Made by a program: the position numbers and the translations under genes | Shown here: one piece after another, positions 10,267 to 43,212 of the stretch | Layout: every line of letters begins with the position of its first letter | Numbering within the stretch: position 1 is the stretch's first letter | Source: an uncultured Pseudomonadota bacterium | GTDB lineage: Bacteria > Oederibacteriota > Muellerivitia > Muellerivitales > Muellerivitaceae | Length of the DNA: 64,000 nucleotides | Direction of reading: 5' to 3' | Assembly: GCA_963836235.1 (NCBI GenBank) | Contig: CAWIIP010000004.1 | Coordinates: 640,001 to 704,000 of the forward strand | The notes under the pieces: generated by a model | What the model saw: the letters and a program-made list of their open reading frames with translations, nothing else | What the model was told of the DNA's origin: nothing | The model's database searches: none

Positions 10267-11273
10267 CTTCAATTGAATCTCGAAAAGCAAAAAAACTTCT
10301 GAAGATTGAAAAAACTCCATTTTTTTCCGTAATCCTTCCTCTGGGGAGGCGAAAAGCTTTTGTGCAAAAATCCTTGGACTCAATACTGGCCCAAGATTTT
10401 GAAGATTTTGAGGTCTCTTCCGTCAGCGATAATTCCCACCTGCATGGACTCCGCCAAACTCGCTTCATGAGAGATAAACGCGTTCACCTTGTTCAGGCCA
10501 AAGAAACCGGTCTTTCGGCTGCCCGAAATATGGGTGTGAAGGCGTCAAGGGGCCGTTACGTCGTTTTTCTGGACCTCGGAGACACGTGGGAGCCCAAATA
10601 TCTTTCAACTTTAAAAAAATTAATCGAAGATTTTCCAGGCGCCGGCCTTTATGGAACCAATTATTGGATTGAAGATGGAAAAGAAAAAAGAGAAAACCCT
10701 CTCCGAATGCCTTCGGGATGGCGGGGACGCCGGAAGGATTTTTACAGCTTGATGTATTATGGGCATCCGCCTTTTTGTGTCAGTTCTGTGGCTCTACCAG
10801 CGGATTTGGCCCGGCAGAATCCTTTTCCCGAGGGCATCCTTGCGGGGGAGGATCTCCTTGTCTGGTTCAAAATTTCCTTGAAACACGAGATGGTTTATTT
10901 CAAAAAACCACTTTCAACCTATGGTAAGTCAGCGGATATAAACCATCAGGGAGTTTATTTCGGACCGCTAAAACACATGGATTGGTTGGCTTTGGGCAGG
11001 CGGTTGAAACGGGAAGGACTACTTTCGAAGGAGGCGGAAAAATTCACACTCTGGGTCACCTTGATTCAAGTAAGGAAAATGATCGCCAATGGAAGGGGAG
11101 AACAGGCCTTGGAGATTTGGGCTCGTTGCCCTAAAACCCCCTTTTTGCCCTATCAGGCCTATTTATGGTGTCTCGTTTTTCTTTCTCCGAAGATTTGGAA
11201 ATTGTTTCAACCAGGTGTTAAAATCGCGCGCTGGATATTGACCGGGAGATTTTATTCTCGGCGGATCCATTAA
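10263..11273 (+). CDS. Glycosyltransferase family 2 paralog with degenerate nucleotide-sugar motifs
   Basis: ATGA overlap with the previous gene; shares DFPGAGxYGTNYWI, GEDLLVWFKISL and TLIQVRKMIANG, but has SVSDNS and FLDLGD. Confidence 0.8.
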   Translation: MTSIESRKAKKLLKIEKTPFFSVILPLGRRKAFVQKSLDSILAQDFEDFEVSSVSDNSHLHGLRQTRFMRDKRVHLVQAKETGLSAARNMGVKASRGRYVVFLDLGDTWEPKYLSTLKKLIEDFPGAGLYGTNYWIEDGKEKRENPLRMPSGWRGRRKDFYSLMYYGHPPFCVSSVALPADLARQNPFPEGILAGEDLLVWFKISLKHEMVYFKKPLSTYGKSADINHQGVYFGPLKHMDWLALGRRLKREGLLSKEAEKFTLWVTLIQVRKMIANGRGEQALEIWARCPKTPFLPYQAYLWCLVFLSPKIWKLFQPGVKIARWILTGRFYSRRIH

Positions 11274-11293
11274 ACCCCTTTCAGGAAAAACCC

Positions 11294-12571
11294 ATGTCCT
11301 TGCGACGAATCGGATCAATCCTCATCGTTCTGATAGGTTTTAATGTGTTTCTGGACACTTTTTTTTCTTTTGAGAGAGGAAACTTTACCATACGTCTTGT
11401 TCCCTATGCTTTTAAGAGCCTACAGTTGTTTCTCATGCTGGTTATTATATTTTATTTCCTGAGCCAGAGGATCATCCCGATAAAAATCCCGCCTGTTTTT
11501 TGGCTTTTTTTCTTTTTTGTCGGCGACATGGTGGCTTCAGTTTTTTACGCCCAGGACCAGGTCAATCCTACGGATCTTGCCCGGATGATTTTTTGGGTTC
11601 TGGCCGCTTTCGCGATTTGTCTTTTGCGGCAGGCCGATTGCTTGGAGGAAAAAGTTATGTTTGGGATGGTGGTCTTCAACTTGGGCTGGGTTTGTTTCAG
11701 GATTTTGGCCTTTAAAGTCCTCAATATTTGGATCGGAGCGCAGGTCAGTTACGATGAAACCGTTGGATTTGACAATGATGGGGTGGTCAATAACTTGGGC
11801 TATAGTCTTGTTTGGCTGGTTCCTCTGTTCTTGCTTTTTAAGTCGAAAATTCGTTTTCCCCTGCTATTCATCGTCCTTTTTTCCATGGTCGCCTCTTTCA
11901 AGCGCGGGGCTCTGTTGGGATTAATTCTGGGTTCCGTGGTTTATTATTTCCTCGACAGGAGGGTACGAGGCCGCCAAAACAGAAGCTTGGTAAAAGACAT
12001 GGCCATGGTTCTGGCTGTTCTTGCCCTGGCGGGGGTCGGCTTCCTTCTTTTCAAGGACCACATTCTCGCCCGGATGGAGGATATTAGCGGGGATAAATCC
12101 TTTGGCTCTGGCCGGGAGATCTTCTATCAAATTGTCCTCAACCATTGGGAGAGATTTGTCGGAATGAAAAAAGTAATCGGGGCCGGCTTTTTCCAAGTCA
12201 TGCCCATGTTGGGGCTTTATTACGAAAACGCCATTCCAGCGCATAGCGATTGGCTTGAAACACTTTACGATCAAGGATTTATTGGAGTGGCCATGCTGGC
12301 CGCCATTCACAGCGCCATAGTTATCCGGATTCTGGAAACAATAAAAAAAGGACGTGAGTGGGGTCCTCACCTTGCTTATTCCTACGTCATTTTTTTTCTT
12401 TCGAGCGTCTATTCGATAACGCTTTATTCCTTTGACACAACTTGGTTCGGAGTTTCCTTGGGCTACTACCTGGGAACGGATATCTTATTTAAAAGAAGGG
12501 CTGGGGAGGAACCTGTTCCAGCAAAGGCGGCGGAAAAGCCGGGTTTTTCAGCGGCGGTGGCATACCATTGA
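11294..12571 (+). CDS. O-antigen ligase / Wzy polymerase family membrane protein
   Basis: About 11 TM segments; SFKRGALLG, GSGREIFY and PAHSDWLETLYDQGFIG (Wzy_C-like). Confidence 0.75.
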   Translation: MSLRRIGSILIVLIGFNVFLDTFFSFERGNFTIRLVPYAFKSLQLFLMLVIIFYFLSQRIIPIKIPPVFWLFFFFVGDMVASVFYAQDQVNPTDLARMIFWVLAAFAICLLRQADCLEEKVMFGMVVFNLGWVCFRILAFKVLNIWIGAQVSYDETVGFDNDGVVNNLGYSLVWLVPLFLLFKSKIRFPLLFIVLFSMVASFKRGALLGLILGSVVYYFLDRRVRGRQNRSLVKDMAMVLAVLALAGVGFLLFKDHILARMEDISGDKSFGSGREIFYQIVLNHWERFVGMKKVIGAGFFQVMPMLGLYYENAIPAHSDWLETLYDQGFIGVAMLAAIHSAIVIRILETIKKGREWGPHLAYSYVIFFLSSVYSITLYSFDTTWFGVSLGYYLGTDILFKRRAGEEPVPAKAAEKPGFSAAVAYH

Positions 12572-13869
12572 CAAGCCTCCCGATCCGGCAGACGATTCCC
12601 CGGCATATTCTTGTTTTCGAGGCTTACACCGACGCCAATATCGGCTCCGGGGCCTTAGTGGAGAATACGGTCAACATCTTAAAAGGGAAGTACCCGAATT
12701 CCGAAATCAAAATCATGGCCCATTATCCGGCGGCGTTTAATTATGAAAACATTGAATCCATTCCGGATGTATTTGAATACCCCTTCTTAAAACCCCGTTG
12801 GATACAGGTCATTTGGCTTTTTAAAACCATGCTTTGGTTGCTTCTGGCTTATCTTCAAGCCTTGATTTTTAAATCTAAATCCTTTCTCTTGTTCAGAGAA
12901 AAGGCCCGGCCATTCCAATGGGCGGATCTGGCGGTGAGCGTTGGGGCGGAGAGACTTAACGACAAATTCGTCAAAGGACTTTTTTTTTCCGCCTTAAGCC
13001 TCGGGCTCCTGAAAGTCTTGGGAAAGAAGGTCGTTTTTTTTCCGTCCACTATCGGCCCATTCCTCTACAAGCCGACGCGCTGGCTTTCCGGGGCCGTGCT
13101 GAAACGGTTGGACCTGGTCTATACTCGGGACCGTCAGTCCACCCAAACCTGCCTGGACAAGCTTAAACTGGACCCTTCCCGGGTCGTAGAAACGGCTGAC
13201 GTGGCCGTTCTTCAATCGCAGGTTGACGCGGATATATCATGGGAACTTTTGCAGTCTTTTCAGGAAAAACAATTGTCGTCAGGAACCCCGTTGGTTGGAA
13301 TCAGCGCCATGGAATGGACTTACCGTTCCAACAAAGTGGAAACTCAATACAGTAATTATGAATCCTATATTCGGGAAATGGCACAATTGGCCGACACCCT
13401 GGTGGAGAAATACGGCGTCAAAATTGTATTGTTTTCCACTAATTACCCCATCCATGGCTGTCGGGAGGATGATGTCGCCGTCTCCCGCAAGATCCGTGAC
13501 AAAATGGCCCGCCCGGATTCGGCCATCGTGATCGACCGTTTGACCACCCCGTCCCAATTCAAAGGCATGTTGGCCTGCTCCCAGGTGAATATTGTCACTC
13601 GGATGCACGCTTGTATTCTTTCCACTGGGGCTGGAATTCCGACTCTTTCCGTCAACTATCTTTTCAAGTTGAAAGAATATATGGAGTCCCTTGGTCTTGG
13701 TGAATTTTCCATCGACATCGAAGAATTTAATGCAGAGGATATGTTGGTGGCTTTCGACAAGATGTGGAAATCCAGAGAGGATTGGAGCCGGAAAATCCGT
13801 GCTGTCATTGAAAATAAAAAAAAATCCCTGACAAAAGACATGGAACGGATGGACGATTTCATCCGATAA
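12568..13869 (+). CDS. Polysaccharide pyruvyl transferase family (WcaK-like)
   Basis: NIGSGAL, STIGPF, YTRD, ADVA and TRMHACILS motifs; TTG start overlaps the previous stop. Confidence 0.8.
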   Translation: MTSLPIRQTIPRHILVFEAYTDANIGSGALVENTVNILKGKYPNSEIKIMAHYPAAFNYENIESIPDVFEYPFLKPRWIQVIWLFKTMLWLLLAYLQALIFKSKSFLLFREKARPFQWADLAVSVGAERLNDKFVKGLFFSALSLGLLKVLGKKVVFFPSTIGPFLYKPTRWLSGAVLKRLDLVYTRDRQSTQTCLDKLKLDPSRVVETADVAVLQSQVDADISWELLQSFQEKQLSSGTPLVGISAMEWTYRSNKVETQYSNYESYIREMAQLADTLVEKYGVKIVLFSTNYPIHGCREDDVAVSRKIRDKMARPDSAIVIDRLTTPSQFKGMLACSQVNIVTRMHACILSTGAGIPTLSVNYLFKLKEYMESLGLGEFSIDIEEFNAEDMLVAFDKMWKSREDWSRKIRAVIENKKKSLTKDMERMDDFIR

Positions 13870-14021
13870 AGGCTTAGAACTCATTTCTGGTGTTGCTGAT
13901 CTGTAACTTTTGATAATTAAAATTTCTCTTGAATCAATTTGATTACCCCTTTCTTTCCGGTTAAAACATAACGGATTTGCTTTAACACTGAAAAACGACG
14001 AATCTTTGAAAAGACGGAAAA

Positions 14022-15131
14022 ATGAAAATCGCGCATATTGTTTTAAAAACCATTCCGTTTGGCGGGGGTATCGAAAAATATATTGATGAAATAGGGCCTC
14101 GCCTGGTGGCGAAGGGCCACGAGATAGTTGTTTACACGATGCGACATTATGGGAATCCTCCCGTTTCTTATAAAGGGATGAAAATAAAAACCGTTCGTGC
14201 TTTGGCTTCTAAAACAGCCGAGAAAGTGACTTCTTCTTTTTTGGCCACACTTGATGTCTGCCTCAATGAAAAGCCCGATTTGGTTCATTTTCATTCCTTC
14301 ACCCAGCAAACGACATTCCTGCCAAGGTGGGTTGGTATTCCGGTATTGGTTCAGGGGCATGGGTTGGAATGGAAAAGGTCACGTTGGAACTTGGCAGGAA
14401 AATGGTTTTTAAAATTTAGTGAATGGAGCATGGTCCATTCGGCGGACCGCTTGACCGTTGTTTCGAAGGTGCAACAAAAATACCTAAAGGAAAGATACGG
14501 GCGTGAGAGCGTGTATATCCCCACGGGGATTAATCCACCAAATCGTTTGGAACCCAAAGAAATAACCTCTCTGTGGGGGCTTAAAGGCAGGGATTATTTC
14601 CTAACGGCGGCAAGACTGGTGCCGGAGAAGGGCATTCATACCTTGATAGAAGCCTTTAATGGACTCGAAACAAGTTTTAAGTTAGTCATCGCGGGAGACG
14701 CCGGTCATGAAAAGGAATATCTCGAAAAGCTGAAGACCTTGGCCCACTGTAACCCCAGTATTATTTTTACCGGATACGTAACCGGCAAACCTTACGTCGA
14801 ATTGATGTCCAACGCCTACGCCTTTGTCCTGGCTTCCGACCTAGAGGGACTTCCTACCGTCCTGTTGGAGGCCCTGAGTTACGGGAATTGTTGCCTGGCC
14901 AGTGATATTCCGGAAAATCGGGAAGCACTAGGAGCAAAGGGAATAACTTTCCAAAGTGGTTCAGTTGAGGATTTGCGTAATACCTTGAATGATTTGGCTA
15001 AGGATACGCAAAAAGCTCAGAGCTTGCGTTCAACCGCTGCCGATGGATTGTTAGAAGGGTTTCATTGGGACAAAATCGCAGATCAATTCAACGATCTTTA
15101 CGCCCAAATGGCCAAAGATTCAGGACGTTAG
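14022..15131 (+). CDS. Glycosyltransferase family 4
   Basis: GGGIEKY, HGLEWKRSRW, RLVPEKG, EGLPTVLLEALSYG. Confidence 0.9.
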   Translation: MKIAHIVLKTIPFGGGIEKYIDEIGPRLVAKGHEIVVYTMRHYGNPPVSYKGMKIKTVRALASKTAEKVTSSFLATLDVCLNEKPDLVHFHSFTQQTTFLPRWVGIPVLVQGHGLEWKRSRWNLAGKWFLKFSEWSMVHSADRLTVVSKVQQKYLKERYGRESVYIPTGINPPNRLEPKEITSLWGLKGRDYFLTAARLVPEKGIHTLIEAFNGLETSFKLVIAGDAGHEKEYLEKLKTLAHCNPSIIFTGYVTGKPYVELMSNAYAFVLASDLEGLPTVLLEALSYGNCCLASDIPENREALGAKGITFQSGSVEDLRNTLNDLAKDTQKAQSLRSTAADGLLEGFHWDKIADQFNDLYAQMAKDSGR

Positions 15132-15134
15132 GCT

Positions 15135-16346
15135 ATGCGAATCCTCTATGTGAATAAATACAATTACTTGAAGGGAGGGGCCGAGCGCGTTCTTATTACC
15201 GAAATGGATATGATGAAATCCCACGGTCATGATATTGCGGTTTTCGCTTCCCGTCATCCAAACAACATGCCGAGTGAATTCTCCGGTGAGTTCGTGGAAG
15301 AGGAAAATTACTTCAACGCGGGCCTTGTCCATAAGATCAAGGCTGCTTTTAAAATTGTTTATTCTTTCGAAGCACTTGAGAAATTTGGGCGTGTAATCGA
15401 CGTATTTAAGCCCGACATCATTCACGCCCACAACATCTACGCGCAGTTAAGCACGGGGATTTTAGACGCGGCTAAAAAGAGGGATGTGCCGACGGTACTA
15501 ACCGCTCATGATTATAAGCTGGTTTGTCCCTCCTATATGATGCTGGACCATGGAAAGATATGCGAGAAATGCATGGGTGGCAATTACTATCACTGCTTTA
15601 CCACTGGATGCCACAAGGAAGACCGCGCGGCTTCTGCGGTTTATATGGCGGAAACTTATTTTAACGCCTGGTTCAAGAAATATGACTCGGTGAGGAAATT
15701 TATCTGTCCTAGCCACTTCATGATGTCCAAGATTGCCAATCGGTTCCCTGAAAAACGAATAGTTGTACTTAACAATCCGGTCGATGTTTCCGCCTACATC
15801 CCTTCTTCTAGTGATGAAGGCTACTATCTTTATACCGGGCGTCTGTCGAAGGAAAAAGGAGTCTTTACACTAATTAGGGCTTTTAAGGAAATGGGCCTGC
15901 CTTTGAAAATAGCCGGGACTGGCCCATTGGAAGGGGAATGCCATAAGCTGTCGGAGGGCGTCTCCGGTATCCAAATGATGGGCTATAAGACTGGAAAGGA
16001 ATTGGAAGAACTCTATCGAAGTGCTCATGCCTGTGTGGTGCCCTCCGAATGGTATGAAAACGCCCCAATGTCGGTTATCGAGCCTTTGGCTTATGGAAAA
16101 CCGGTGATCGGCGCACGCATTGGAGGAATTCCTGAACTGATCCAGGAAGAGAAAAGCGGCCTGCTTTTTAAGCCTTTTGAGCCGGAGGATTTGAAAGAAA
16201 AAGTTTTGAAATTGGAACGGTTATCTCGTGAAGACTATGGTGATATGTGCGGGCAGGCGCGAGAATCGGCCAAAACTCAGTTTTCTTTAGAACGACACTA
16301 CGATGATTTGTTAAAGATTTACAGGCAAGTTCTCCAAACTGATTAA
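15135..16346 (+). CDS. Glycosyltransferase family 4
   Basis: GGAERV, TAHDYKLVCP, GRLSKEKG, ENAPMSVIE, IGGIPELI. Confidence 0.9.
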   Translation: MRILYVNKYNYLKGGAERVLITEMDMMKSHGHDIAVFASRHPNNMPSEFSGEFVEEENYFNAGLVHKIKAAFKIVYSFEALEKFGRVIDVFKPDIIHAHNIYAQLSTGILDAAKKRDVPTVLTAHDYKLVCPSYMMLDHGKICEKCMGGNYYHCFTTGCHKEDRAASAVYMAETYFNAWFKKYDSVRKFICPSHFMMSKIANRFPEKRIVVLNNPVDVSAYIPSSSDEGYYLYTGRLSKEKGVFTLIRAFKEMGLPLKIAGTGPLEGECHKLSEGVSGIQMMGYKTGKELEELYRSAHACVVPSEWYENAPMSVIEPLAYGKPVIGARIGGIPELIQEEKSGLLFKPFEPEDLKEKVLKLERLSREDYGDMCGQARESAKTQFSLERHYDDLLKIYRQVLQTD

Positions 16347-20542: not shown

Positions 20543-23152
20543 ATGCCACGCATTCGAATCCATCAAGGGACTTTTTTATCCGCACTTTTCTCCCGAAAAC
20601 GATTCCGTTTGGATTGGGTGGCCTGGCCGCTTTTGGCCTGCGGCGTTCTTCTTTTCACTGAACCCGTCCAATCAGCCGTATCTTTATGGCAGTCTCTGCC
20701 GTTGATCACGCAGTCGAGCCTGAGCGCGGGGAATAGTGGTGGGGAAGGCTGCCAGGTGATCCAAAATTTCGCGATCGACACCACGGGCCAATTCCTCATG
20801 ATGGGAACCGATGTGGGTGGGATATTTCGAAGTATTGATGGGGGGGTCAGCTGGCAGCCCGCCGATACGGGATTTACCCCCCGGGGAGCCTGCGCTTTTG
20901 CCATTGATCCCAACAATTCCAACCGGGTGCTGGCGGTGGGGGACAACTCCGCCGCCCAGCCCTGGAACGGCCTCTGGCTCTCTACCGACCAGGCTTCTTC
21001 CTGGACACCGGTTCAGGAAGAAAACTTCCAGGGTTCGGGAACCTATCATGATTCAGCCGCTTTTGACGCCTCCAGCGTGACGGTGTCGGGTGGAGTGACC
21101 TTCAGCGCCGTGGCCTATTGGGTGAATTACTCGGACGGGGGTGGTGGACTGTGGAAATCCACTAACGGCGGCAATAGCTGGAGCAAGATCCAAACCGCCT
21201 ATTCGGATGGTATCGTCAAAGTCAACCCTTCCAGCGGGGCAGTGTACGTGGCCACGGCCAACGGCTTCTATGTCGGCACCCCCGGGGGATCGAGCTTTAC
21301 TCAAGTCGTTACCGGTCCGGTGCTGGGATTGGATGTCATCGCCACCCAGCCGAATAACGTCTACATCAACGAAGCTAACGGTGTCTATGTTTCCACGAAT
21401 TCAGGGCAAAGCTTCACCGAAATGGGCAACACCGGACTGCCTACCAGCGCTTCTCCGGGATTACGTAACCTCAAGGTTAGCCCGGTAAATCCGAACAATA
21501 TGCTCATCGACGAGGATATGGGGACCTATACCTCCCAAAATTATTACTATTCCTCCAATGGTGGTAACAACTGGTCGGCTTGCGCGCTTAACTCTGCCCA
21601 AAGCTTTGTCCCACTCAATACCCGGGAATGGCTCTTTGTTTGGAGCCCTACCAACGCCAACCAGGCCTGGACTTGTGGAGGGGATTTCATCAGCCAAACA
21701 ACCAATGGAGGAGCTAATTTCGCCTGGTCCAGCAATGGGTACAACGACTTTACCTGCACGGGTATTTTTAACTTCAATACCCAAAATCCCAACCTGCTTT
21801 TGGTCACCAGCCAGGACTACAACTCGGCCTTTACCGGGGCGGTTACCAACAGCGCAGTCACATGGGAATATTTGAATGTTTCCGGGCTAGGATGGGGAGG
21901 ATTCAATTACGGGGGTTACGCATTGAGTTCCACGGTGATGGTGGCCGGTAACTCGGTGGCTTGGGGGGCGCCCGCTACCCTGATGGTTTCCACCAATGGG
22001 GGGAGTAGCTTCACCAGCACAGGATTGGTGGGCAACAATACCCAGACGGCTTGTGGGGACCCGGTTAGTGCCACGGTGGCTTTTTGGGACAATTACCGCA
22101 CTATCGATGGAGGAAGCACCTGGCAGGCGATGACCAATTGCGGGGGTGTTTTTACCTATGATTCGAACCCCGCAGGGGCTCATGAGCTATATGGGGCTAA
22201 TGGTTCCATGGTGGTGAAATCCATAGATCATGGGGCTACCTGGACCAACGTGGTGACGGTATCGGGAACGGTAGCGGACTTGGCCTATGATTGGAGCGAC
22301 AACCGGCTCTATATCGTTTCAGGAAGCTCGTTGTTGGAATACAACGGGACATCTACGACGAACCTCTCGGGAGTGCTGGCGGCTGACAACGAGGGGAACC
22401 AGAGTGTAGTCTCGGTGGCGGTGGACCCGGTAAATCCCACCATTGTTTATGCGGCCTGGAACGGTGGAAGTTATATGTCAAACCAGGCTATTCGCTATTC
22501 GGTGAACGCGGGAGCGACCTGGAGCACGCTGACCAAACAGCCGGGCGACACGGGGATGGATGGAGGCAGAGAGTCGGCCTGTGTGAGGGTCAACCCGTTG
22601 ACCCGCTACCTTTATTCCACCGGGAGCTGTTTTGGGGTCTGGAAATACCCGCCCCCGGTTTCCGGGTCGCCGACTCCCAGCGCTACACCAACACCCACCA
22701 ACTTAGGTGGTTTTACCTCTACACTCACACCGACGAAAACATCAACCATTACCTCTACTCCGACCCAAACCTTTACAGCTACTTCAACCATTACACCAAC
22801 GCCTACCAATTTATACGGTTATACTTCCACGCCGACACCCAATCCGGTGCTTGTTTCCGTGGGCCCCGTGGGTGTCCCCATCGTTTTTCCCAACCCGATA
22901 ACGAGTTCGGGCCAACCGACCCAAGCTCAAATTTATTTTAAAAACAGCGCTCATTACGGCCGCCTAGAAATATTTACCGTAAACTTTCGAAAGGTGGAAG
23001 AAGTTTATATTGGGGATGTCAACCCGGGAACCATAACAGTGTCTTTATCCCTGGCCGATAGCGGAGGGATATCTTTAGGGAATGGCCTGTATTATCTTGT
23101 CGCCAGGGATTCCGCGGGGCAGGCGATAGGGAAGATGTTGATTCTGCGCTGA
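20543..23152 (+). CDS. Secreted GH74-like beta-propeller, copy 2, with Pro/Thr linker and T9SS-like C-terminal domain
   Basis: Paralog of 18115..20214 (GGEGCQVIQNFAID, NNTQTACGDP); GTDVGG motif; PT-rich linker; C-terminus VFPNP...GNGLYY...GKMLILR. Confidence 0.75.
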   Translation: MPRIRIHQGTFLSALFSRKRFRLDWVAWPLLACGVLLFTEPVQSAVSLWQSLPLITQSSLSAGNSGGEGCQVIQNFAIDTTGQFLMMGTDVGGIFRSIDGGVSWQPADTGFTPRGACAFAIDPNNSNRVLAVGDNSAAQPWNGLWLSTDQASSWTPVQEENFQGSGTYHDSAAFDASSVTVSGGVTFSAVAYWVNYSDGGGGLWKSTNGGNSWSKIQTAYSDGIVKVNPSSGAVYVATANGFYVGTPGGSSFTQVVTGPVLGLDVIATQPNNVYINEANGVYVSTNSGQSFTEMGNTGLPTSASPGLRNLKVSPVNPNNMLIDEDMGTYTSQNYYYSSNGGNNWSACALNSAQSFVPLNTREWLFVWSPTNANQAWTCGGDFISQTTNGGANFAWSSNGYNDFTCTGIFNFNTQNPNLLLVTSQDYNSAFTGAVTNSAVTWEYLNVSGLGWGGFNYGGYALSSTVMVAGNSVAWGAPATLMVSTNGGSSFTSTGLVGNNTQTACGDPVSATVAFWDNYRTIDGGSTWQAMTNCGGVFTYDSNPAGAHELYGANGSMVVKSIDHGATWTNVVTVSGTVADLAYDWSDNRLYIVSGSSLLEYNGTSTTNLSGVLAADNEGNQSVVSVAVDPVNPTIVYAAWNGGSYMSNQAIRYSVNAGATWSTLTKQPGDTGMDGGRESACVRVNPLTRYLYSTGSCFGVWKYPPPVSGSPTPSATPTPTNLGGFTSTLTPTKTSTITSTPTQTFTATSTITPTPTNLYGYTSTPTPNPVLVSVGPVGVPIVFPNPITSSGQPTQAQIYFKNSAHYGRLEIFTVNFRKVEEVYIGDVNPGTITVSLSLADSGGISLGNGLYYLVARDSAGQAIGKMLILR

Positions 23153-23181
23153 TAGCCTAGTTCGGACAATAGTTTTTGAAA

Positions 23182-23207
23182 TAAATTGAAGGGACCCCTT
23201 CAATTTA
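23182..23207. terminator. Inverted repeat between convergent genes, probable bidirectional terminator
   Basis: TAAATTGAAGGG-AC-CCCTTCAATTTA, perfect 12-bp arms. Confidence 0.6.
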
Positions 23208-23450
23208 AGGAAGAACACGAAAGAAGCGAGAATTGACGACGTTGTATAAATCCCCAATGGTAGGACTTTTCAAGATGTCTTCGCCTTCAATGGAGACGCC
23301 ATACTCCTGATCGACCATGGTGATGATGGATAAAGCCGTCAGCGAATCCCAACCACCGATTTCATCAAGACTGGTTTGCAAGGTCGCGTTTTTAACGTTG
23401 GTTCCGTCGAATTGAGCCAGGATGTTTTTAATGAAAAGTTCGGTATCCAC
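23205..23450 (-). CDS. Acyl/aminoacyl carrier protein
   Basis: 81 aa and acidic; GWDSL phosphopantetheine motif; TIGDL helix; GAGGTG RBS before GTG. Confidence 0.85.
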   Translation of the reverse strand: MDTELFIKNILAQFDGTNVKNATLQTSLDEIGGWDSLTALSIITMVDQEYGVSIEGEDILKSPTIGDLYNVVNSRFFRVLP

Positions 23451-23845
23451 TTTCTCACCTCAAAAAGAGCCGGTTAATTTGGAATCTTTGCCAAAATTCT
23501 AAAGATGGACTCCACGCCTGCGGTTTTCCCCGGCGGGTAAAAATTAATATAACCTAATAAACACCAAAGATCGCCATGTATGGGAAAAACCCTATCAAGA
23601 ATTAGCAAGACTTGATCTTTATAATGACTTTGGTAAAAAATGTAAACCAAAGAGTTATCCGCTTGTCCAAAAGGTCATTGGCAATAATGGGCTTGATCAA
23701 AGCCCCCTGTGTGGAATGGTTGACCTGGAAATATTTCAGCCGCCACCGAACGCTTTTATTTTGGAAAATAAGTTCACAGTGGGCGGGGGTTAAAAAATCT
23801 TGTGTCATATGACTTTTAAAGGACCAAAAAAAACGGGGGCAGGCC

Positions 23846-25444
23846 ATGCGCGATGACAGAGAAAATCACGGGGAAATAAGTGAAAAAAATAAAGAACTTT
23901 GGGAAAACTACAATAAGACGGATGAGGATATCCCGCACGAAACATTACATGGGATGTTTTCCAGGCAGGCAAAAAGGACTCCCGATAAAGTTGCCGTGAT
24001 AAATGAAGGAGAAACTATAACCTTCATCGAATTAGACAAAAGATCCAACCAGGTTGCGAGGTATTTGAAGAATCGTGGAATTGGCAGGCATGGTTATGTG
24101 GGAATTCTGGTTGGGAGGCGCATCGGGACCATTGTAAACATTATGGGCGCTTTGAAAGCGGGATCGGCCTATGTGCCGATCGAGCCCGATTATCCAATCG
24201 ACCGGAGAGATTTCATATTGAGCGATAGTGGATGCCATTGTTTGCTAGAACCTGAGTTTTACGAAGCGAACCATTTGAAAGAATATGAATATTCGGAGAT
24301 TACCCAAAACGAATATCCTGAGGATGTGGCCTACGTCATTTATACATCCGGAAGCACCGGTAGGCCTAAAGGGGTCGTAATTAAACACGACGCGGTGTGC
24401 AATACGATCATCGATCTCAATCAAAAATACAAAGTGGGCGAAAAAGACCGGATGATTGGGCTGTCTTCCATGTGTTTCGATTTATCGGTTTACGATATAT
24501 TCGGGTCATTGGCGAGCGGAGCCACCTTGGTTCAAATCCCCAATCTCCTGGATATCACTCGCGTTCAAAAAGTTGTCGAAAATGGGGAAATAACGGTATG
24601 GAACTCGGTCCCGGCCATCATGGAGCTGTTGATTGAGACCAATGGGAAAAAGACGAGAGACATCAATTATTGGGAAGCGCCTCCTGATAGCGGTAGGGTG
24701 ATTAAATATAAAATGAACGAAAATATGAGACTGGTTATGATGAGCGGCGACTGGATTCCATTGAGCCTGCCAGACAAAGTCAAAGCTGAGTTTCCAATCG
24801 CGGAAGTCATCAGTTTAGGTGGGGCGACCGAAGCATCCATCTGGTCCATCTATTTTCCGATTGCGGAAGTTCGGAAAGAATGGAAAAGCATCCCTTATGG
24901 AATTCCTTTGGCGAACCAAAAATTTTATGTTCTGAACGAAGCGATGGAGTTGAGCCCTTCAGGCGAGATGGGAGAATTGTATATCGGGGGAGTTGGAGTA
25001 GCGGAAGGCTATCTTAATTCCGAAGAAAAGACCAGGAACGCTTTTATGGTTCATAAGGAATATGGTAAGTTATATCGGACGGGAGATTACGGAGTTTTGC
25101 GCTCTGAAGGATATATTGAGTTTCTAGGACGAAAAGACAGCCAAGTCAAAATCAGGGGCCACCGGATAGAGCTTGGGGAAATCGAGAACGTTCTTAATCA
25201 GAAAGAGGGCGTCAAAAACTCAATTGTTGCTGACCGGGTGGACCCCACGGGCCGTAAATACCTGGTAGCTTATGTTGTGCAAGAGGGGAAATTAGACAAG
25301 GAAGAATTCAGCGGCTATCTGAGCAAATCATTACCCGAATATATGGTTCCGACATTTTATGTGAAAGTGGATCAAATTCCGCTTTCGTCGAATGGAAAAG
25401 TGGACAGAAAAGCTTTGCCGGATATAGAGGTTTCGCCGGAGTAA
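23846..25444 (+). CDS. Stand-alone NRPS adenylation domain, predicted Cys-activating
   Basis: YVIYTSGSTGRPKG, FDLSVYD, SLGGATEASIW, GELYIGG, YRTGD and NGKVDRKAL motifs; no C/Cy or PCP domain. Confidence 0.9.
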   Translation: MRDDRENHGEISEKNKELWENYNKTDEDIPHETLHGMFSRQAKRTPDKVAVINEGETITFIELDKRSNQVARYLKNRGIGRHGYVGILVGRRIGTIVNIMGALKAGSAYVPIEPDYPIDRRDFILSDSGCHCLLEPEFYEANHLKEYEYSEITQNEYPEDVAYVIYTSGSTGRPKGVVIKHDAVCNTIIDLNQKYKVGEKDRMIGLSSMCFDLSVYDIFGSLASGATLVQIPNLLDITRVQKVVENGEITVWNSVPAIMELLIETNGKKTRDINYWEAPPDSGRVIKYKMNENMRLVMMSGDWIPLSLPDKVKAEFPIAEVISLGGATEASIWSIYFPIAEVRKEWKSIPYGIPLANQKFYVLNEAMELSPSGEMGELYIGGVGVAEGYLNSEEKTRNAFMVHKEYGKLYRTGDYGVLRSEGYIEFLGRKDSQVKIRGHRIELGEIENVLNQKEGVKNSIVADRVDPTGRKYLVAYVVQEGKLDKEEFSGYLSKSLPEYMVPTFYVKVDQIPLSSNGKVDRKALPDIEVSPE

Positions 25445-25467
25445 GCCGAAGGAACGGCTTTGCTTTT
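25443..25467 (+). terminator. Possible intrinsic terminator after the A-domain gene
   Basis: AAGCCG-AAGGAA-CGGCTT followed by TGCTTTT. Confidence 0.35.
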
Positions 25468-25615
25468 CGCGTTCCCGAAATTCAGGCATTGAATATAAAA
25501 TGATCATCGAGTCTGACGCCTGTCAAAGCGGTGCTGGGTTGGGCGAAGAGGGTCATTGGGAATAGGTTTAATAAAGGAATGGTCTTAGTAAGTGCCTCAT
25601 CGTCAAGGGAATGAA

Positions 25616-26596
25616 ATGGAAAAAAACGGAAAATATTTCTGGTCGCCCTCGGTTCGATGGAAAAAAACCGATAACGAAATTCGAATAGAGATCTTTTCTT
25701 ATTCGGGATTTGTGAGTGATTTATTCCCCGACTTTTATTTTTTAACCCAAAACGGAATAATGATTGAGGAATTAATCAGCAAGTATTCTTACGTCGGTAA
25801 AAATAAATTTACCCTTTTTTTAAAGGATTTGATAAAGAAGAAAATCCTCGTAAAAGGTGTTTTGACACCCCAAGAAATATTTTATCCTCAAAGTTACCTT
25901 TTTAATAAAGATGGCGCGAAAAAGGGTCGTCCCGAGCCGTATAATTCGGTTGAAAAACAGCCCGGCGGGGAACGCGGTTTTGAAAACGAAAAAAAAATTA
26001 TTCTGAAACACAATCATGAATTCCCGGACATTATCAGCCAACGCAGAACTTGTAGAACTTTTGATCAAAATCGTGTTGTGGACGAAAATGCTTTTTCGAA
26101 TCTTCTAGCCGTTTTTAGCCAAGTCAAAAATGGCGAAAATATCCGGTATTATTACGCGAGTTCCGGTAGTTCTTATCCTATTGATGTGTATGTTTACGTC
26201 AAAAAGGACCGGGTCGAGAATGTTGCCGGAGGTTTGTATGATTATAAACCTGCCGATAACAGCCTGAATTTAGTGAATGACACGTTTGAGATTCCCAAAA
26301 ACGCGCATTATTTCACCAATCAAAATATTTATCTTGGATCAGCCTTCTCGATTTTCTTTATTTTCAACGCCGAAGCGACCATGCCGAAATATGGCGGAAT
26401 CGGATATTTTTACGGATTGATAGAAACCGGAATCATGGTGAGCACGATGACATGTATTGCCGAAGCGAACGGGATTGGAATATGTTCTATTGGCGACATG
26501 AATTTCAAAAAGATAGAAAAATATTTCAATTTGAATGAAAAGCAGGTTCATATCCATACGGTTGAAGCGGGTTTGAAGGAAAAAGAGAATAAATAA
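25616..26596 (+). CDS. SagB/ThcOx-family FMN-dependent oxidase (NRPS Ox-domain-like nitroreductase fold)
   Basis: RRTCRTF, YASSGSSYPIDVY, GGLYDY, ETG...GICSIG; ATG 25616 follows AAGGGA. Confidence 0.8.
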   Translation: MEKNGKYFWSPSVRWKKTDNEIRIEIFSYSGFVSDLFPDFYFLTQNGIMIEELISKYSYVGKNKFTLFLKDLIKKKILVKGVLTPQEIFYPQSYLFNKDGAKKGRPEPYNSVEKQPGGERGFENEKKIILKHNHEFPDIISQRRTCRTFDQNRVVDENAFSNLLAVFSQVKNGENIRYYYASSGSSYPIDVYVYVKKDRVENVAGGLYDYKPADNSLNLVNDTFEIPKNAHYFTNQNIYLGSAFSIFFIFNAEATMPKYGGIGYFYGLIETGIMVSTMTCIAEANGIGICSIGDMNFKKIEKYFNLNEKQVHIHTVEAGLKEKENK

Positions 26597-26825
26597 GACG
26601 GTTGGAGGCGCCTTCCCGCTATAGGGAATTTCACGCTGCAATGAATGGACATCCAACTGGTTCAAAAGCCAAACGCTTATTTGCCGCGAGGTTAATCGAA
26701 CTGGTTTAGTTTTTTCATCTTAAAGGAGTTCGTGCCAACGCGGGTTTCGCCAATTTTGCGCCAACCTAAATGAGGGTTCTTGTCTTCTGCGCGAAGCGGT
26801 TTTTCTCGTGCACAGAAAGGGTAAA

Positions 26826-27590
26826 ATGTTCCAAAGGTTTGTTCTTTTTTTAAAGTATGTTTTAAATATTCCCCTGCGCCCCCAATCCCGCGCGAGGAAG
26901 ATATGTCTTCTTCTGCGCGCGATACCGAAGACCCTTTACTTTAATTTCAAATATTTCGATTTCAAGAACGCCATCCGGTTTCCGGTTTGGATTTCCCACC
27001 GGGTCCACCTAATGCACATGGGAGGAACCGTGGTCATTGATGCGCCGGTCCAATTCGGAATGGTCCGGATCGGGTTCGCCGAGAACAATTTGTCCAATGT
27101 CGAATTTGACAGGAATGTCTGGGATGTTTGGGGAAAGGTCGTTTTCAAGGGCCGGCTGGTCATGGGCCTTGGCAACAAGATAACGGTCCCGCTCCAGGAA
27201 GCCATCCTTACTTTCGGTTCAAATAATCTGATCAACGTTAACAACCAGTTTTGTTGTGCCAAATCCATCACTTTCGGCGACTATTTGCGCGTAGGATGGG
27301 AAAATATATTTATGGACACGGCTTACCACAACATCAAATCCAAAGGAAAAATATTGAATCCCCCCCGGCCCATCCTCGTTGGAAATCATGTTTGGATCAC
27401 GACCCGTTGCGGAATTTTCCAGGGAACCGAATTAGCGGATGAGTCTATCGTCGCCTATGGCAGCCTCTTATCCTGGAAATATACTAAACCCAAATCCATA
27501 ATTTCTGGCTATCCCGGCCGGGTTGTTCTCGAAGGGGTAGAACATGATGAGCTTCCGATGGAGTATTTCCAAACCCATCTTGTTGAATGA
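26826..27590 (+). CDS. Hexapeptide-repeat acyltransferase of the capsule-locus type
   Basis: PKTLYFNFKYF N-terminus; FMDTAYH, ILVGNHVWI, IVAYGS and SGYPG left-handed beta-helix motifs. Confidence 0.75.
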   Translation: MFQRFVLFLKYVLNIPLRPQSRARKICLLLRAIPKTLYFNFKYFDFKNAIRFPVWISHRVHLMHMGGTVVIDAPVQFGMVRIGFAENNLSNVEFDRNVWDVWGKVVFKGRLVMGLGNKITVPLQEAILTFGSNNLINVNNQFCCAKSITFGDYLRVGWENIFMDTAYHNIKSKGKILNPPRPILVGNHVWITTRCGIFQGTELADESIVAYGSLLSWKYTKPKSIISGYPGRVVLEGVEHDELPMEYFQTHLVE

Positions 27591-27939
27591 CCCGATCATT
27601 TGTCGCGGTGGAGATGAGTGGCGATTGAAAAGAGGGCTAAGCCACGAACCATATTTGAGTATAAAAAATGAAAATGGCTATTTCATAAATAAATTATGAT
27701 TCAATTTGGGAAAGCTGAAACAAGTATAACAAAAGAGTTAGAAACCAGAATAACAACGATGAATTTGCCCCTCCTAAGCGAAAATTAAACTATTGAGCTG
27801 AAACGACAGAAACAAAAATCATTTTTAGTTTTTCGGTTTCCTTGTCCTAATTTTATTACTGTGATAACCTATCGGTTCTCGATTAACCTAAAAGTAACTA
27901 TGGTTAAACAGTAAAGGAACCCTGACTTTTAAGTCGTTT

Positions 27940-30060
27940 ATGAAACAAAATCAGATTTTTTTTAGGACTTTTTGCACCAAAGACATTCGCTCCTTTTCAG
28001 TGGCAGTTGCCCTGTTGTGCTTGTTTTTTTTTAGCCCCTATAAATCCTTAGCTCAAGATTCACCAACTGATACTCCAACGGATACGGCTACCGACACAGC
28101 GACACCTACTCCCATCTTCACTGACACTCCAACTGACAGCCCAACTTTCACTACCACGCTCACTACTACAAACACTCCCATCTTCACCGACACTCCAACC
28201 GACAGCCCAACTTTTACTACTACGTTCACTACTACAAACACTCCCATTTTCACCGACACGCCAACCGAGAGCCCAACTTTCACTACCACGTCTACTGCTA
28301 CTAACACTCCAATCTTCACCGATACTGCTTCTTCTACCCCGAGCCAGACATCGACTAATACCTTTGTCAACACAGCGACCTTAACACCCAGCTCAACCGC
28401 TATCAATACTCCGACTAATACTCCGGTTAATACCGGTACTCCGACGCAAACACCTACGAGGACCAGAACGTCGACCCCTTCCGCTACCTCGACGAAATCA
28501 CCAACTAGTACTCGCACCGGCACTCCGACCCACACCGGTACCCCGACTCAAACGGGGACACCCACGGGAACCTTCACCAAAACGCCCACGAGTACTATTA
28601 CCCTTACAGAAACTCAGACCCCAACATCCACAGTTACTAATTCACCGTCGAATACCCCGGCAAATACGGCTACTACGACAGCCACACCCACGAATAGCGG
28701 AACTCCTACTCCAAGTTCCACCCCCACGAATAGCGCGACCGCTTCCGATACTTCCACTACGACGGATACACCGACTGATAGCGGAACGCCAACCCCGAGT
28801 GGAACTCCTACTAATAGCGCGACAGCTTCCCCTACGTTTACGCCGACTTTTTCGGCTACAACGACACCAACCTCAACGGTCAGCGATACTCCGACCAATA
28901 CGACAACAAACACAACTACTAACACACCTACGGCTACTCAGACACCCATTTCGGGCGGGAATCTTTCTATTATTAATAACCTGACACAACCGGTTACCTT
29001 GACGAACTTTGGTATAAACAATTTAACTGTTATTTTCCCAACTTGCGCGTTCACTGCTGGACAATTGCCAGTGACGATCACGGTTAGTCAATTTAACGTT
29101 AGCGCGGCACCGGCAACTCAAAACGTGAATCTTGCTCAATTTCTTCCGTCGTCGGTTTTTCTCATAAACACGGGCGGTGCTGAACCAAGTTGTTACGTCT
29201 CCCTTACTTTTCCTTATAACCCTTCTGAATTAGGGAGTTCACCTACTTCAAATTTGGAGGTCGTTTATTTTAATGGATCGGCATGGATTAGTGTTCCCGG
29301 CCCTGTTATAAATACCGTTAACGATACGGCGATGGTAAGCGTTAATGCTTCTCTTTCCACTTGGTGGGCAGTGGCCGTATCTGTTGTGGCTACCAATACG
29401 CCTACGGCTACAGCTACAAGCACCATTACGGACACATTTACACCAACCAGTTCTCCAACAAATACAACTACTTTCACGCCCACAAGTACTTTCTCGAATA
29501 CACCTACGGCTACAGTTACCAGCACGGTTACCGATACTCCGACAGCTAGCGATTCACCAACCCCAACAGACACTTTCATGTATTCTCCTACTAATACTGC
29601 CACAAGCACTGTTACCGATACTCCGACTTCTACCAATACATCTACTAGTTCTGCGACACTCACCAGTACTCCCACTAGTACCGTAACGCTTTCAGCGACA
29701 CCGACTATATCCTCTACCAGCACGGCCACTTTAACTCGTACAACCACTGAAACGGTTACGCCGACTCCCATCCTTACGCCCAATATCGTTTATCTTAGTT
29801 CCAACACAGTTAATTCTATTAGCGGTCCTCCTCTCAACATCCAATTTAGTACAACTAACGGCGTCCCAACCGGGATCACCATCCACGGTTCTTCCGGTCG
29901 CATTATTCGTCACTTGCCCATTCTCACAGGTACCTCCAACGTTAATTGGGATGGCAAGGATGATAGTGGCTCGCCTGTGTCTACCGGTATTTACCTAATT
30001 GCAGTTCATGAAGCGAACGGTAAGCCTGTCTTCCGGAAAGTGGCGGCATTGAAAGAATGA
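27940..30060 (+). CDS. Secreted Thr/Pro/Ser-rich mucin-like protein with small central domain and C-terminal FlgD-Ig/T9SS-like domain
   Basis: Signal peptide ending SLAQ; two long TPT tracts; C-terminal [16 protein letters not shown]...RKVAALKE. Confidence 0.8.
28108..28326 (+). repeat. 66-bp coding tandem repeat, 3 copies plus a partial fourth
   Basis: Unit close to [22 protein letters not shown], starting at 28108, 28174, 28240 and 28306. Confidence 0.9.
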
Positions 30061-31880
30061 AGATTCGTTTTTGTTTTTTCCTTTCCTTTTTTGGCTTCCT
30101 GGCCCCCATTTGGGGTCAATCGTCTTTGACCTCGGGAGCGGATTTCCTGCTCATGACTACCGGCGCAAGGCCGGATGCCATGGGACAGGCTTTTAGCGCC
30201 GTTGCGGATGACATCAACACGCTCTCATTCAATCCGGCGGGGTTGGCCAACATCCGTTTGCCGGAAATCGGCTATGGACATGAGTCGTTTTTAGCCGATA
30301 TTGGCTACGATTTTCTGGGGGCCGCTATTCCGACCGGAAATTTGGGTGTTTTAGGACTAGGATATTTGGCGATGGGGACGGCACCGTTCAACAGCACCAG
30401 CAATCCCGAGGCTCCATCGGTTTCGGTGCAGGATACGGCCTTGATTGGGGCATGGGGAAAATCTTTTTCAGACCTCCATTTGGGCGCGGCGGTTAAATAT
30501 ATCAATGAGAAGGTAGCCACCCTTCAAGGAACTGGTTTTGCTTTTGACTTCGGCGCCCGTTACCGACTCCTTCCTCAGTTTACCCTGGCGGGAAGTGTCT
30601 TAAACATCGGTCCTGGGATTAAGTTTGCCAGTGTTGAACCACTGCCCTTAGTAGTGAACGGCGGCCTGGCTTGGACCGCCCTGCAAAATTCCACCCACAG
30701 CCTTACCCTGGCAACGGACACTTCCCACGTAGCCACGGAAGGTATCCAACGGTATAGTTTTGGAGCCGAGTATTGGTACAAAAATATGTTTGCCATTCGG
30801 GCCGGTTACCTGACTAATTCCCAGGTTGAAGGCTTTTCCGCGGGAGCTGGCGTAAGGTTCTCATTCTTCCAGCTTGATTACGCTTTTGAACCCTACAACA
30901 ATCTTGGGTCGGTTCAACGCCTCTCTGGCCTCTTCCAATGGGATGGGCCCTGGGTTTCAGGAGGGGAGCCGAACGCCCCCAAATATGTGACCGTCCACCA
31001 AACTTACGAGGCATTGGAAATCCGTTGGGATAAGGCCCAGGGGCCGGTCCAATCTTATGAGGTTCTGATCCAGCCGCTGGATGGAGGGGATTTGATTGTT
31101 TCGCCCTCAGTCTCAAATCCCGCTTTTGATTTCAAGGACTACTCCCCGAATATTCTTTACCGTATCTCCGTGCGGTCCATAGGAATTGGAGGTGGCCGCA
31201 GCTTTCCTTCCCGAGAAGTATTGATTCGGACTGGAAGTAAAGAGGCCGTCCTTAAGACCCAGTATCAGGCTGAAGTTGGAAACAAGGTTAAGGAATCAGC
31301 GGCCAAAGGGCTTTATGGAAATGTCGATTCAATCGGGTTAAGGCTTACTTGGGATTCCTCGAAAGAGGGAGGGGTCATCGGCTATAACATTTATCGTCAG
31401 TCGCCCTCGGGCCAAGTGGAAAAGGTGAGTTTGGCCCCAAAACAAGGAAATAAAGTTTGGCTAACGGGAACCGCTGAATTCGCGGGTTGGGAATGGATCG
31501 TTACCGCCGTTCACAAGAGTGGAAACGAGAAAACGCTTGGAACTTTTCTTTGGTACCCCACTCCGGATGAAATCGAAAAACTTTCGGTAACTTCTTCTCG
31601 TCATTTGAGGGCTAGCCCCCAACCCGATCGGCAGGTTTTCCTGGTTTGGGACGGTGATCCGGATGCCGCCCAATATACCCTTCTTTACAGTTTGGCGGCG
31701 GATGGGGTTTATGAAGTTTATAAGGAAATGGAAAAAACAGAAACGAATGCCCTCTTAGATATACCGGGCAATAAAGACGTCTATTACTTTATTGTGGTTC
31801 CGAAGAAGTCCAATGGTGATTGGTCTGGTTCAACTCAGGAAGCCAAAGTGACATTATACAAGGACGCCCCTGCGGAATAA
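30057..31880 (+). CDS. PorV/PorQ-like outer-membrane beta-barrel with C-terminal FN3-like domains
   Basis: GADFL...[17 protein letters not shown]...NPAGLA; AIRAGY; LDYAF; followed by IRWD, LTWD and LVWD FN3-like segments; ATGA overlap with the upstream gene. Confidence 0.75.
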
Positions 31881-39871: not shown

Positions 39872-40380
39872 ATTTCCGTTCGGCTGGTTTAATGAAAAAA
39901 AGACGATCCTATTTTATCAAAGACCTTGTTTAATTTGAGGGTAAATTCCTGACTTTTGGAAAGTTAGGTTGGAAAATAGGCGCTTTTTTGGACGGTTTTT
40001 GGAGTTGATCCATTGTATAAACGTCAGCGATTGGGAAATGAATCATTTACATTCGGAAAAAATTGACTTTTATCAATTTGCCAACCCGTTATTTCAAAAT
40101 TAATTAATTCATCGGGTTTGTCTGAGACGACGAATTATCCTGATGCCTTTGGGATTTAACTTGAAATTATTTGCGGTCATCTTGAGAAGACGTTTGTCTT
40201 ATTCGATGTCGTTTAAATTGAGACTTTTGACCCTTTATTTGGAAATAAGTAACGCAAACCTTGCCCACGGAACCTTGTTTTCACATTTTTTAGATTAAAT
40301 TTTATATTGCGGATCTTTCCTTTACGTGGGGTTTTGATCCATACTTGCACGGTTTTAATGAACTTTTTGCGAGGACAAAA

Positions 40381-43179: not shown

Positions 43180-43212
43180 GAATAAAAAATTGATTTTATT
43201 GAGGAGTCTGAA

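Follow-up and report, generated by a model that had tools for sequence, protein, structure and literature searches.

A 64,000-nucleotide (nt) stretch of contig CAWIIP010000004.1 (hereafter the window, in which all coordinates count from the first letter) carries four genes at 23205-27590. They encode an acyl carrier protein (ACP), a free-standing adenylation enzyme of the nonribosomal peptide synthetase (NRPS) type (A), a flavin mononucleotide (FMN) oxidase (Ox), and a left-handed beta-helix acyltransferase (LbH). The first-pass annotation of this DNA had described a module of a carrier protein, an A domain, a SagB/Ox-type oxidase, and a hexapeptide acyltransferase, and our analysis recovered all four. 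We propose, with a probability of roughly 0.38, that they form a functional, minimal, and dissociated thiotemplate cassette, in which cysteine would be loaded on the ACP, oxidized without heterocyclization, and then transferred by LbH. What the four proteins are, that their catalytic residues are intact, that the genome lacks any C/Cy or YcaO, how narrowly the genes are distributed, and that they are under purifying selection are computed results. All of the protein families are known, and the novelty lies in their combination and in the absence of any cyclase. No description of a Cy-less set of Cys-A, Ox, ACP, and hexapeptide transferase was found in the open-access literature, subscription journals lying outside the scope of that search. 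Two genomes of the same genus were compared throughout: the assembly that contains the window (five contigs, 99.38% completeness) and that of a sister species (80% complete), where the cassette lies on a 36.6-kb contig.

The adenylation enzyme is free-standing and predicted to activate cysteine

The A gene (23846-25444, plus strand) encodes a protein of 532 amino acids (aa) that matched the Pfam families PF00501 (E = 2.4e-78) and PF13193. Against TIGR01733, the model for amino-acid adenylation domains, it scored 372.5 bits versus a cut-off of 317.4, and it is the sole domain of this kind above the cut-off in the genome. Its best relative in the PDB is module 2 of the bacillamide synthetase BmdB, a Cy-A-PCP (peptidyl carrier protein) module, with residues 10-525 aligned with 437-933 of the chain (E = 2.2e-179). 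This agrees with the earlier view of A as a cysteine domain of the thiazoline-module type.

The pocket residues of A were located by anchoring on core motifs, with which BmdB A2 and A both align, and the ten positions that we take to constitute the pocket code read DLYNMSLIWK. When the same columns were read in 32 related A domains, which come from loci that also hold Ox relatives, the first four held D, L, and Y in every sequence and N in 31, the fifth held L in 26 and M in 6, and the remaining five held S, L, I, and W in all 32 and K in 31. The pocket of BmdB A2 differs from that of A only at the fifth position, where it has L for M. According to excerpts of PMC8795117, BmdB A2 was crystallized with a Cys adenylate analogue. 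L-cysteine is thus strongly predicted as the substrate of A, and the Cys code that had been read by eye at first pass stands.

A is not embedded in a Cy-A-T module. Among eight related NRPS open reading frames (ORFs) scanned by Pfam, seven have Condensation, AMP-binding, and PP-binding domains, and the eighth is a 504-aa piece adjoining a 3190-aa ORF. A search of representatives with the A protein listed 150 matches, all of them NRPSs of 3211-7864 aa; matches were ranked by summed bits, and therefore free-standing relatives of A would not be visible among them. We also considered whether a 19-aa loop in A, at the site where Ox domains are embedded in other enzymes, is the scar of an excised Ox domain, and rejected this reading because the nearest relatives (loci L002, L003, and L013) have an equally long loop.

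The oxidase is of the BmdC type and has no recognizable cyclase partner

The Ox ORF opens with GTG at 25592 and has a probable ATG start at 25616, which gives a protein of 326 aa (25616-26596, plus strand). It matched PF00881 (E = 3.6e-18) and the SagB model TIGR03605 (96.3 bits versus a cut-off of 78.4). Its best PDB relative is BmdC (E = 1.5e-77), and the alignment, of query residues 15-329 with 8-324 of the chain, runs over the full length and includes both an RRE-like N-terminal domain and a nitroreductase-fold Ox domain. In excerpts of the work of Fortinez et al. (PMC8795117), R146, N236, Y260, S292, and G294 of BmdC are given as residues for FMN binding and catalysis. These align with R152, N243, K266-Y267, S299, and G301 of Ox, and across 16 sequences K266 and Y267 show little or no variation. 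The earlier call of a SagB/Ox-type FMN oxidase was therefore correct and can be narrowed to an NRPS thiazoline oxidase of the BmdC type.

Ox departs from its relatives in a segment that contacts FMN from the second protomer. Within this A-S-A-G-G-L segment, three residues are replaced by serine (A191S, G193S, and L194S) in the window and the sister species alike, at positions where 50 (A), 54 (G), and 55 (L) of 55 relatives have the usual residue. Three Ser replacements beside an FMN contact segment would fit a changed substrate. As a partner for the RRE-like domain, a precursor peptide was considered. Small ORFs in the spacers include one of 81 aa at 23602-23847 (minus strand); this idea was dropped because the ORF has no family match in Pfam or NCBIfam and, owing to indels, lacks an intact frame in the sister species.

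To our knowledge, the thiazoline oxidases of NRPSs have been understood solely as enzymes that act after a Cy domain or a YcaO enzyme. When window ORFs of at least 150 aa were scanned with Pfam, no C/Cy, YcaO, KS, or TE families appeared, as the first-pass annotation had claimed, and the check for Cy or YcaO that it had called for in the rest of the genome was negative as well. PF00668 (the Condensation family, which includes Cy) and PF02624 (YcaO) each had zero matches in the 99.38%-complete genome, no PF00975 thioesterase scored above its cut-off there, and tblastn of the genome with five Cy/C, two T (PCP), one TE, and one R domains cut from related loci returned no hits; a KS query gave two weak hits, on contigs C1 and C4. 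PF00668 had no match in the 80%-complete sister genome either. Thus, neither Cy nor YcaO was found in the same organism as a thiazoline-forming partner of Ox. A Cy-containing NRPS that would use these proteins in trans is likewise not in evidence, since no Cy was found in the genome by PF00668 or tblastn, nor PF00668 in the sister genome.

The carrier resembles fatty acid synthase ACPs, and LbH resembles sugar O-acetyltransferases

The ACP gene (23205-23450, minus strand) is divergent from the A gene and encodes an 81-aa free-standing carrier with a match to PF00550 (E = 1.9e-10; 41.3 bits versus a cut-off of 20.8), and the serine motif GGWDSL is readable in its translation. Fatty acid synthase (FAS)-type ACPs, not PCPs, are its best PDB relatives (2ehs, E = 7e-6). 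NCBIfam gave 12 matches, all to general ACP models and each under its cut-off, with no DltC model among them, and a word search found four close homologues at 100, 85, 78, and 74% identity. Descent of the ACP from an ancestral PCP was rejected because the top phmmer score against any carrier domain in 69 other loci with Ox relatives was only 23.6 bits and because FAS ACPs are its best PDB relatives. The sole phosphopantetheinyl transferase (PPTase) found in the genome is of the AcpS type (contig C5, 305939-306235), and no Sfp-type PPTase was detected there. AcpS-type enzymes prefer FAS-like carriers over PCPs, and a genome with an AcpS-type PPTase alone would fit a FAS-like carrier better than a PCP.

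LbH is encoded downstream of Ox by an ORF that opens with GTG at 26808 and has a probable ATG at 26826 (26808-27590, plus strand; 254-260 aa), the product from the ATG (26826-27590) being 254 aa. Pfam found nothing in this protein even at E <= 1, a Hexapep match included. Its 16 NCBIfam matches, among them LacA (5.4e-8), WbbJ (4e-6), and WcaF, are all far under their cut-offs, and a PDB search returned LacA (E = 4.4e-7). The AlphaFold model (pLDDT 89.4) is a beta-helix with short strands throughout residues 54-236, for which the best Foldseek matches were NeuO (2.8e-7) and OatWY, both polysialic-acid/capsule O-acetyltransferases, then VCA0836, MAT, and LacA. On the grounds of the weak NCBIfam matches, the PDB match to LacA, and the fold model with its Foldseek matches, LbH is assigned, as modelled, to the left-handed beta-helix acyltransferases of the LacA/MAT/NeuO O-acetyltransferase type. 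His174 (H168 from the ATG) is invariant in 30/30 aligned sequences and is matched in the alignment by the A-T-H-P motif His of SACOL2570, the second PDB match.

LbH therefore shares the beta-helix fold and a His at the catalytic position with hexapeptide O-acetyltransferases (LacA/MAT, NeuO, OatWY, and WcaF/WbbJ). It differs from them in being at most 42% identical, in an extra N-terminal helical segment, in adjoining ACP, A, and Ox, and in scoring under the thresholds of the family models. The N-terminal extension, of about 35 aa, is clade-specific, and close homologues of LbH were found only at 93, 83, 66, and 58% identity, all others being at or below 42%. A complex prediction for an LbH trimer with the ACP had a score of 0.00, and as it was run without controls it counts neither way. 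The part that LbH would play in a pathway is proposed only tentatively.

The cassette is a small acquired island maintained by purifying selection in one genus

When each GTDB species was represented by a single genome, a scan for Ox relatives gave 70 loci. The four-gene arrangement recurs, with the same flanking genes, in L001 alone, a locus of the same genus (Ox 77% identical). In the other 61 loci with NRPS-type Ox relatives, Ox lies within or beside large NRPS or polyketide synthase (PKS) ORFs, and the remaining eight (L063-L070) hold distant SagB-like genes and no A match. The nearest relatives of both A (57%) and Ox (51%) are L002 and L003, which are Clostridia-type clusters. In a quick tree, rooted at the midpoint only, the Ox proteins of the window and L001 paired at SH-aLRT 100, and the pair fell, at SH-aLRT 95, within a set of 21 rows made up mostly of free-standing Bacillota oxidases. 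On sequence grounds, A and Ox are a matched pair with a bacillamide-like module as their origin.

The ACP was found at 0/61 of the other NRPS-type Ox loci, and LbH hits among the 70 loci were confined, beyond L001, to two Ruminococcus loci (L056 and L057). There, a weak LbH-like ORF at about 13650-14400 (29-30% identity, about 50 bits) is at a distance of 5 kb from an NRPS that has a short Ox protein with it. In the phylum, Ox, ACP, and LbH orthologues were each found in 2/99 genomes, the same two of one genus, and other LbH matches in that scan did not exceed 43.5 bits; these scans covered Ox, ACP, and LbH, and the presence of A in the second genome rests on synteny. The first-pass annotation had made its reading depend on homologs occurring together with the ACP and the acyltransferase. 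This association holds within the genus, where Ox, ACP, and LbH share the same two genomes, and largely does not hold outside it, given the 0/61 and the two weak LbH-like ORFs.

None of ACP, A, Ox, or LbH was present at the syntenic site in four sister-genus genomes examined, in which a giant secreted protein precedes the orthologous gene for an outer-membrane protein of the DUF5723/UPF0164 type. The GC contents of the cassette genes are 0.374 for Ox, 0.447 for ACP, 0.450 for A, and 0.469 for LbH, versus 0.545 for the flanking BNR2 gene, 0.507 for the flanking DUF5723 gene, and 0.49 for the whole window. A repeat search for island borders yielded short chance-like repeats only and no flanking direct repeats, and Pfam scans of the window ORFs revealed no integrase; tRNA genes were not scanned for.

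All four reading frames are intact in both species, at about 80% protein identity. The dN/dS ratios between the window and the sister species, computed with a Nei-Gojobori-type script, were 0.085 for A, 0.13 for Ox, 0.27 for ACP, and 0.079 for LbH, versus 0.075-0.17 for flanking genes, at dS values of about 0.4-1.1 that are therefore partly saturated. The low ratios indicated that the genes have been maintained since the split of the two species and are not decaying. The cassette is a small acquired island, maintained by purifying selection.

A possible route and its parallels in known systems

We suggest the following route. An ancestor of the genus would have gained the functional four-gene island by horizontal transfer. 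The single AcpS-type PPTase of the genome would prime the ACP, and A would adenylate L-cysteine and load it onto this dedicated FAS-like carrier. The BmdC-type oxidase would then dehydrogenate the carrier-bound residue across C-alpha/C-beta with no prior heterocycle, giving a dehydrocysteinyl thioester that may tautomerize and hydrolyze to a 2-oxo (3-mercaptopyruvoyl) thioester. Finally, LbH would transfer the acyl group onto the hydroxyl of an acceptor, for which a sugar or glycan is the most plausible candidate. Activation of cysteine by A and loading of the adjacent ACP are the well-supported steps, the pairing of A with the ACP being suggested by their adjacency.

The oxidation step draws on enzymes that act in a similar way on a single amino acid. 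In the oxidase family to which Ox belongs, hydrogens are taken from both C-alpha and C-beta of a residue bound to the carrier. Indigoidine synthetases (IdgS/BpsA, A-Ox-T-TE) are described in excerpts of PMC10989907 as Cy-less enzymes that oxidize at C-alpha/C-beta, and the same excerpts report that a TE-null BpsA converts PCP-bound Gln to a 2-oxo product. By analogy, we favor an acyclic Cys-S-ACP as the substrate that Ox would oxidize. As far as that source goes, indigoidine synthetases are like the cassette in handling one amino acid without Cy, by means of an A domain and a carrier together with an FMN Ox of the same superfamily; they differ in that Ox is embedded in A, the substrate is Gln, and the TE cyclizes before oxidation. 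The cassette, in contrast, is made of separate genes, has a Cys code and no TE above the cut-off, and so does not have the A-Ox-T-TE organization.

The closest solved pair to A and Ox is the bacillamide synthetase (BmdB Cy2-A2-PCP2 with the trans-acting BmdC; PDB 7ly4, 7ly5, and 7ly7). Compared with it, the cassette lacks the Cy domain, the fused PCP, and the terminal C domain, and its carrier is a separate FAS-like ACP; in addition, the Asp-Arg docking salt bridges are replaced on both sides, and three residues of A-S-A-G-G-L are Ser.

For the transfer step, the nearest logic is that of clorobiocin, where, according to excerpts of PMC11218499, CloN4/CloN5/CloN3 and then CloN2/CloN1/CloN7 take an aminoacyl unit through loading, oxidation, and transfer onto the hydroxyl of a sugar. 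Going by that account, the two systems would have in common a free-standing A with a free-standing carrier, oxidation on the carrier, and an acyltransferase acting on a sugar hydroxyl, whereas clorobiocin is built from Pro, yields a pyrrole-2-carboxyl product, and belongs to an antibiotic cluster of an actinomycete. The oxidase and acyltransferases of clorobiocin probably also belong to other enzyme families than those of the cassette. In Vibrio cholerae O1, the tetronate side-chain genes of the rfb region comprise an ACP, an AMP-ligase-like enzyme, redox enzymes, and a hexapeptide transferase, which together are proposed to make an unusual acyl group and attach it to an O-antigen sugar; their adenylating enzyme is not known to be a Cys domain of the NRPS kind, and no SagB-type oxidase is known among them.

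Points against the proposed route and alternative explanations

Several observations weigh against this proposal. BmdC-type oxidases act on thiazolines, and we know of no member of the clade that takes an acyclic cysteinyl thioester. The dehydro or 2-oxo product is predicted to be chemically labile, and no release enzyme was found in the genome. The arrangement is known from one genus and a few short metagenome fragments. The contacts by which BmdC docks on its synthetase are also lost: D225/D231 of BmdC form salt bridges with R1513/R1512 of BmdB in the excerpts of PMC8795117, and after BmdB residue numbering was matched to the PDB chain by hand (offset +2), the equivalent positions proved to be F232/A238 in Ox and N/G in A. 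The remaining points concern LbH. Its relatives at or below 42% identity are ordinary glycan-locus O-acetyltransferases, and in 63 metagenome loci with such relatives, no homologue of ACP, A, or Ox, nor any ACP-like or AMP-binding ORF, was found (0/63), which speaks against the regular co-occurrence that the first-pass reading presupposed. Its GC content is near-native, and 229 bp separate its gene from Ox.

These last points lead to the explanation that competes best with our proposal. In this alternative, ACP, A, and Ox alone would work together, possibly with unlinked partners, and LbH would be an ordinary acetyl-CoA-dependent glycan O-acetyltransferase that happens to lie in the same island. 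With no ACP-like or AMP-binding ORF in any of the 63 loci, LbH may just draw on acetyl-CoA and have no connection with ACP, A, and Ox. The nearest solved or modelled relatives of LbH (LacA, MAT, NeuO, and OatWY) are sugar and capsule O-acetyltransferases, and when the neighbors of LbH relatives were scanned in six loci, four had glycosyltransferase (GT), Wzy, or Wzx genes, one had a protein O-mannosyltransferase-like gene and a GT28 gene, and one had neither. The GC content of 0.469, against a window mean of 0.49, and the 229-bp spacer point in the same direction. Against it, LbH orthologues share their 2/99 genomes exactly with those of Ox and ACP, the sister genera have no LbH at the syntenic site, and LbH is set apart from its typical relatives both by its low identity to them and by its clade-specific extension. 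Moreover, the ACP homologue at 85% identity and the LbH homologue at 93% are both listed with a longest contig of 5129 bp, and these may be one contig. We regard a working set of three with an unconnected LbH as a serious if somewhat unlikely explanation.

A second alternative keeps LbH in the pathway and places it upstream of Ox. LbH would acetylate, or acylate in some other way, the thiol or amine of Cys-S-ACP, Ox would drive closure and aromatization to a 2-substituted thiazole-4-carboxyl-S-ACP, and release or transfer would follow. Such a thiazole route needs no C domain, and it agrees with an Ox in which all the catalytic and FMN-binding residues of a thiazoline oxidase are conserved and with an A-Ox pair retained together from a thiazole-forming module; the three serines that have replaced residues next to the FMN contact segment also suggest an adapted active site. 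However, no cyclodehydration enzyme could be identified, cyclization independent of Cy is conjecture, and the relatives of LbH are O-acetyltransferases of sugars. We hold the thiazole route to be improbable. A broader version is equally speculative: the cassette could, independently of Cy, give an acyl unit on the ACP that derives from cysteine and is either heteroaromatic or a 2-oxo-thiol. In this version LbH would acylate Cys, a re-tuned Ox would close or aromatize the ring, and the product would go to a cell-surface glycan or glycoprotein.

A connection to exopolysaccharide is unsupported, and membership in the Dlt system fails

The reading put forward at first pass was a Dlt-like decoration of the product of an upstream Wzx/Wzy exopolysaccharide (EPS) locus with oxidized cysteine. 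An EPS locus is indeed present at 1-16346, with GT4, Wza-like, Wzz/tyrosine-kinase, two Wzx-like, GT2, Wzy, pyruvyl-transferase, and GT1 genes, and LbH is of the glycan O-acetyltransferase lineage. Two results stand against a link. The EPS locus and the cassette are 6.9 kb apart, with four genes between them, two on the minus strand and two encoding BNR/sortilin-type proteins. In addition, synteny with the sister species is limited to the block BNR2-ACP-A-Ox-LbH-Thr/Pro-rich-DUF5723, and the EPS genes of the window have no match anywhere on the 36.6-kb contig that carries the cassette there. Because of this distance and this absence, a link to the EPS or capsule locus is unsupported, and the adjacency looks incidental.

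The Dlt part of that reading fared no better. The Dlt system (DltA/DltC/DltB/DltD) likewise pairs a free-standing adenylating enzyme with a small carrier protein but has no oxidase, whereas the cassette has one. The DltA models TIGR01734 and NF003417 gave A 256.2 and 272.9 bits, far under their cut-offs of 559.85 and 476, respectively; no DltB (MBOAT) or DltD families were found in the window ORFs scanned, and the sole MBOAT match of the genome is on another contig, C2. With the DltA cut-offs missed and no linked MBOAT, membership in the Dlt system fails, and we consider decoration of the EPS with oxidized cysteine very improbable. Least probable of all is that the genes are what is left of a transferred NRPS cluster in decay and now serve no function. 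In its favor are the loss of the Cy, PCP, and release domains of the ancestral module and of the docking salt bridges, and the changes in conserved Ox motif residues, but the frames are intact in two species about 80% identical, dN/dS is 0.08-0.27 against 0.075-0.17 in the flanks, and the catalytic residues are preserved.

Intergenic sequences and neighboring genes

The divergent ACP and A genes are separated by a 395-bp intergenic region (23451-23845), presumably a promoter/operator region. When it is aligned with the sister species, 80% of the columns are identical and long blocks show no difference at all, and it is more conserved than the synonymous sites of flanking genes (pS of about 0.33-0.58); judged by this conservation, the spacer may be a candidate for a shared operator or promoter. 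A 14-nt element recurs upstream of A (23673-23686) and of Ox (25551-25564) with 13/14 positions identical, which is either a shared regulatory site or chance. A promoter/terminator scan gave counts at or below shuffled expectation, a hairpin just 3' of the A stop codon has no conserved counterpart in the sister species, and Rfam at E <= 0.1 found nothing over 22500-28500. Among the matches listed, the sequencing runs that hold part of the stretch make up five DNA rows from two studies and no RNA run.

Within the EPS locus, which has several GT2/GT1 genes, the Wzx-like flippase genes lie at 4222-5550 and 7881-9194, and a gene at 5611-7728 encodes a 705-aa protein in which HAD is the sole domain recognized. 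Downstream of the cassette, the region 27940-31880 encodes a secreted protein of 706 aa that is rich in Thr and Pro and has a C-terminal domain of the FlgD-Ig-like kind. The GC skew in the region of this protein is -0.351, and its gene overlaps by 4 bp that of the DUF5723/UPF0164-type outer-membrane protein, which has matches in 31/31 genomes of the family. In the four sister genomes examined, the outer-membrane orthologue is preceded by a secreted protein of 1000-3400 aa. Further along, a LolCDE-like ABC/FtsX/LolA-like gene set (40345-45301) precedes two ORFs of about 437 aa at 45358-48042, which match no Pfam family and lie in a stretch with a raised GC content of 0.56-0.59.

Implications

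The cassette recombines a pair of assembly-line enzymes, a Cys-A and a BmdC-type Ox, with a FAS-type carrier and a glycan-type acyltransferase. This pair, intact and selected, persists in two species in which neither a Cy domain nor a YcaO enzyme was found as its partner. If LbH is unrelated or Ox is inert, the cassette would be an example of assembly-line fragments surviving transfer into a distant phylum. If active, it would provide a new substrate for the BmdC-type clade, namely an acyclic or otherwise cyclized cysteinyl thioester, and its four proteins would represent a compact system that makes an acyl unit with sulfur in it and could, at this size, be reconstituted in vitro.

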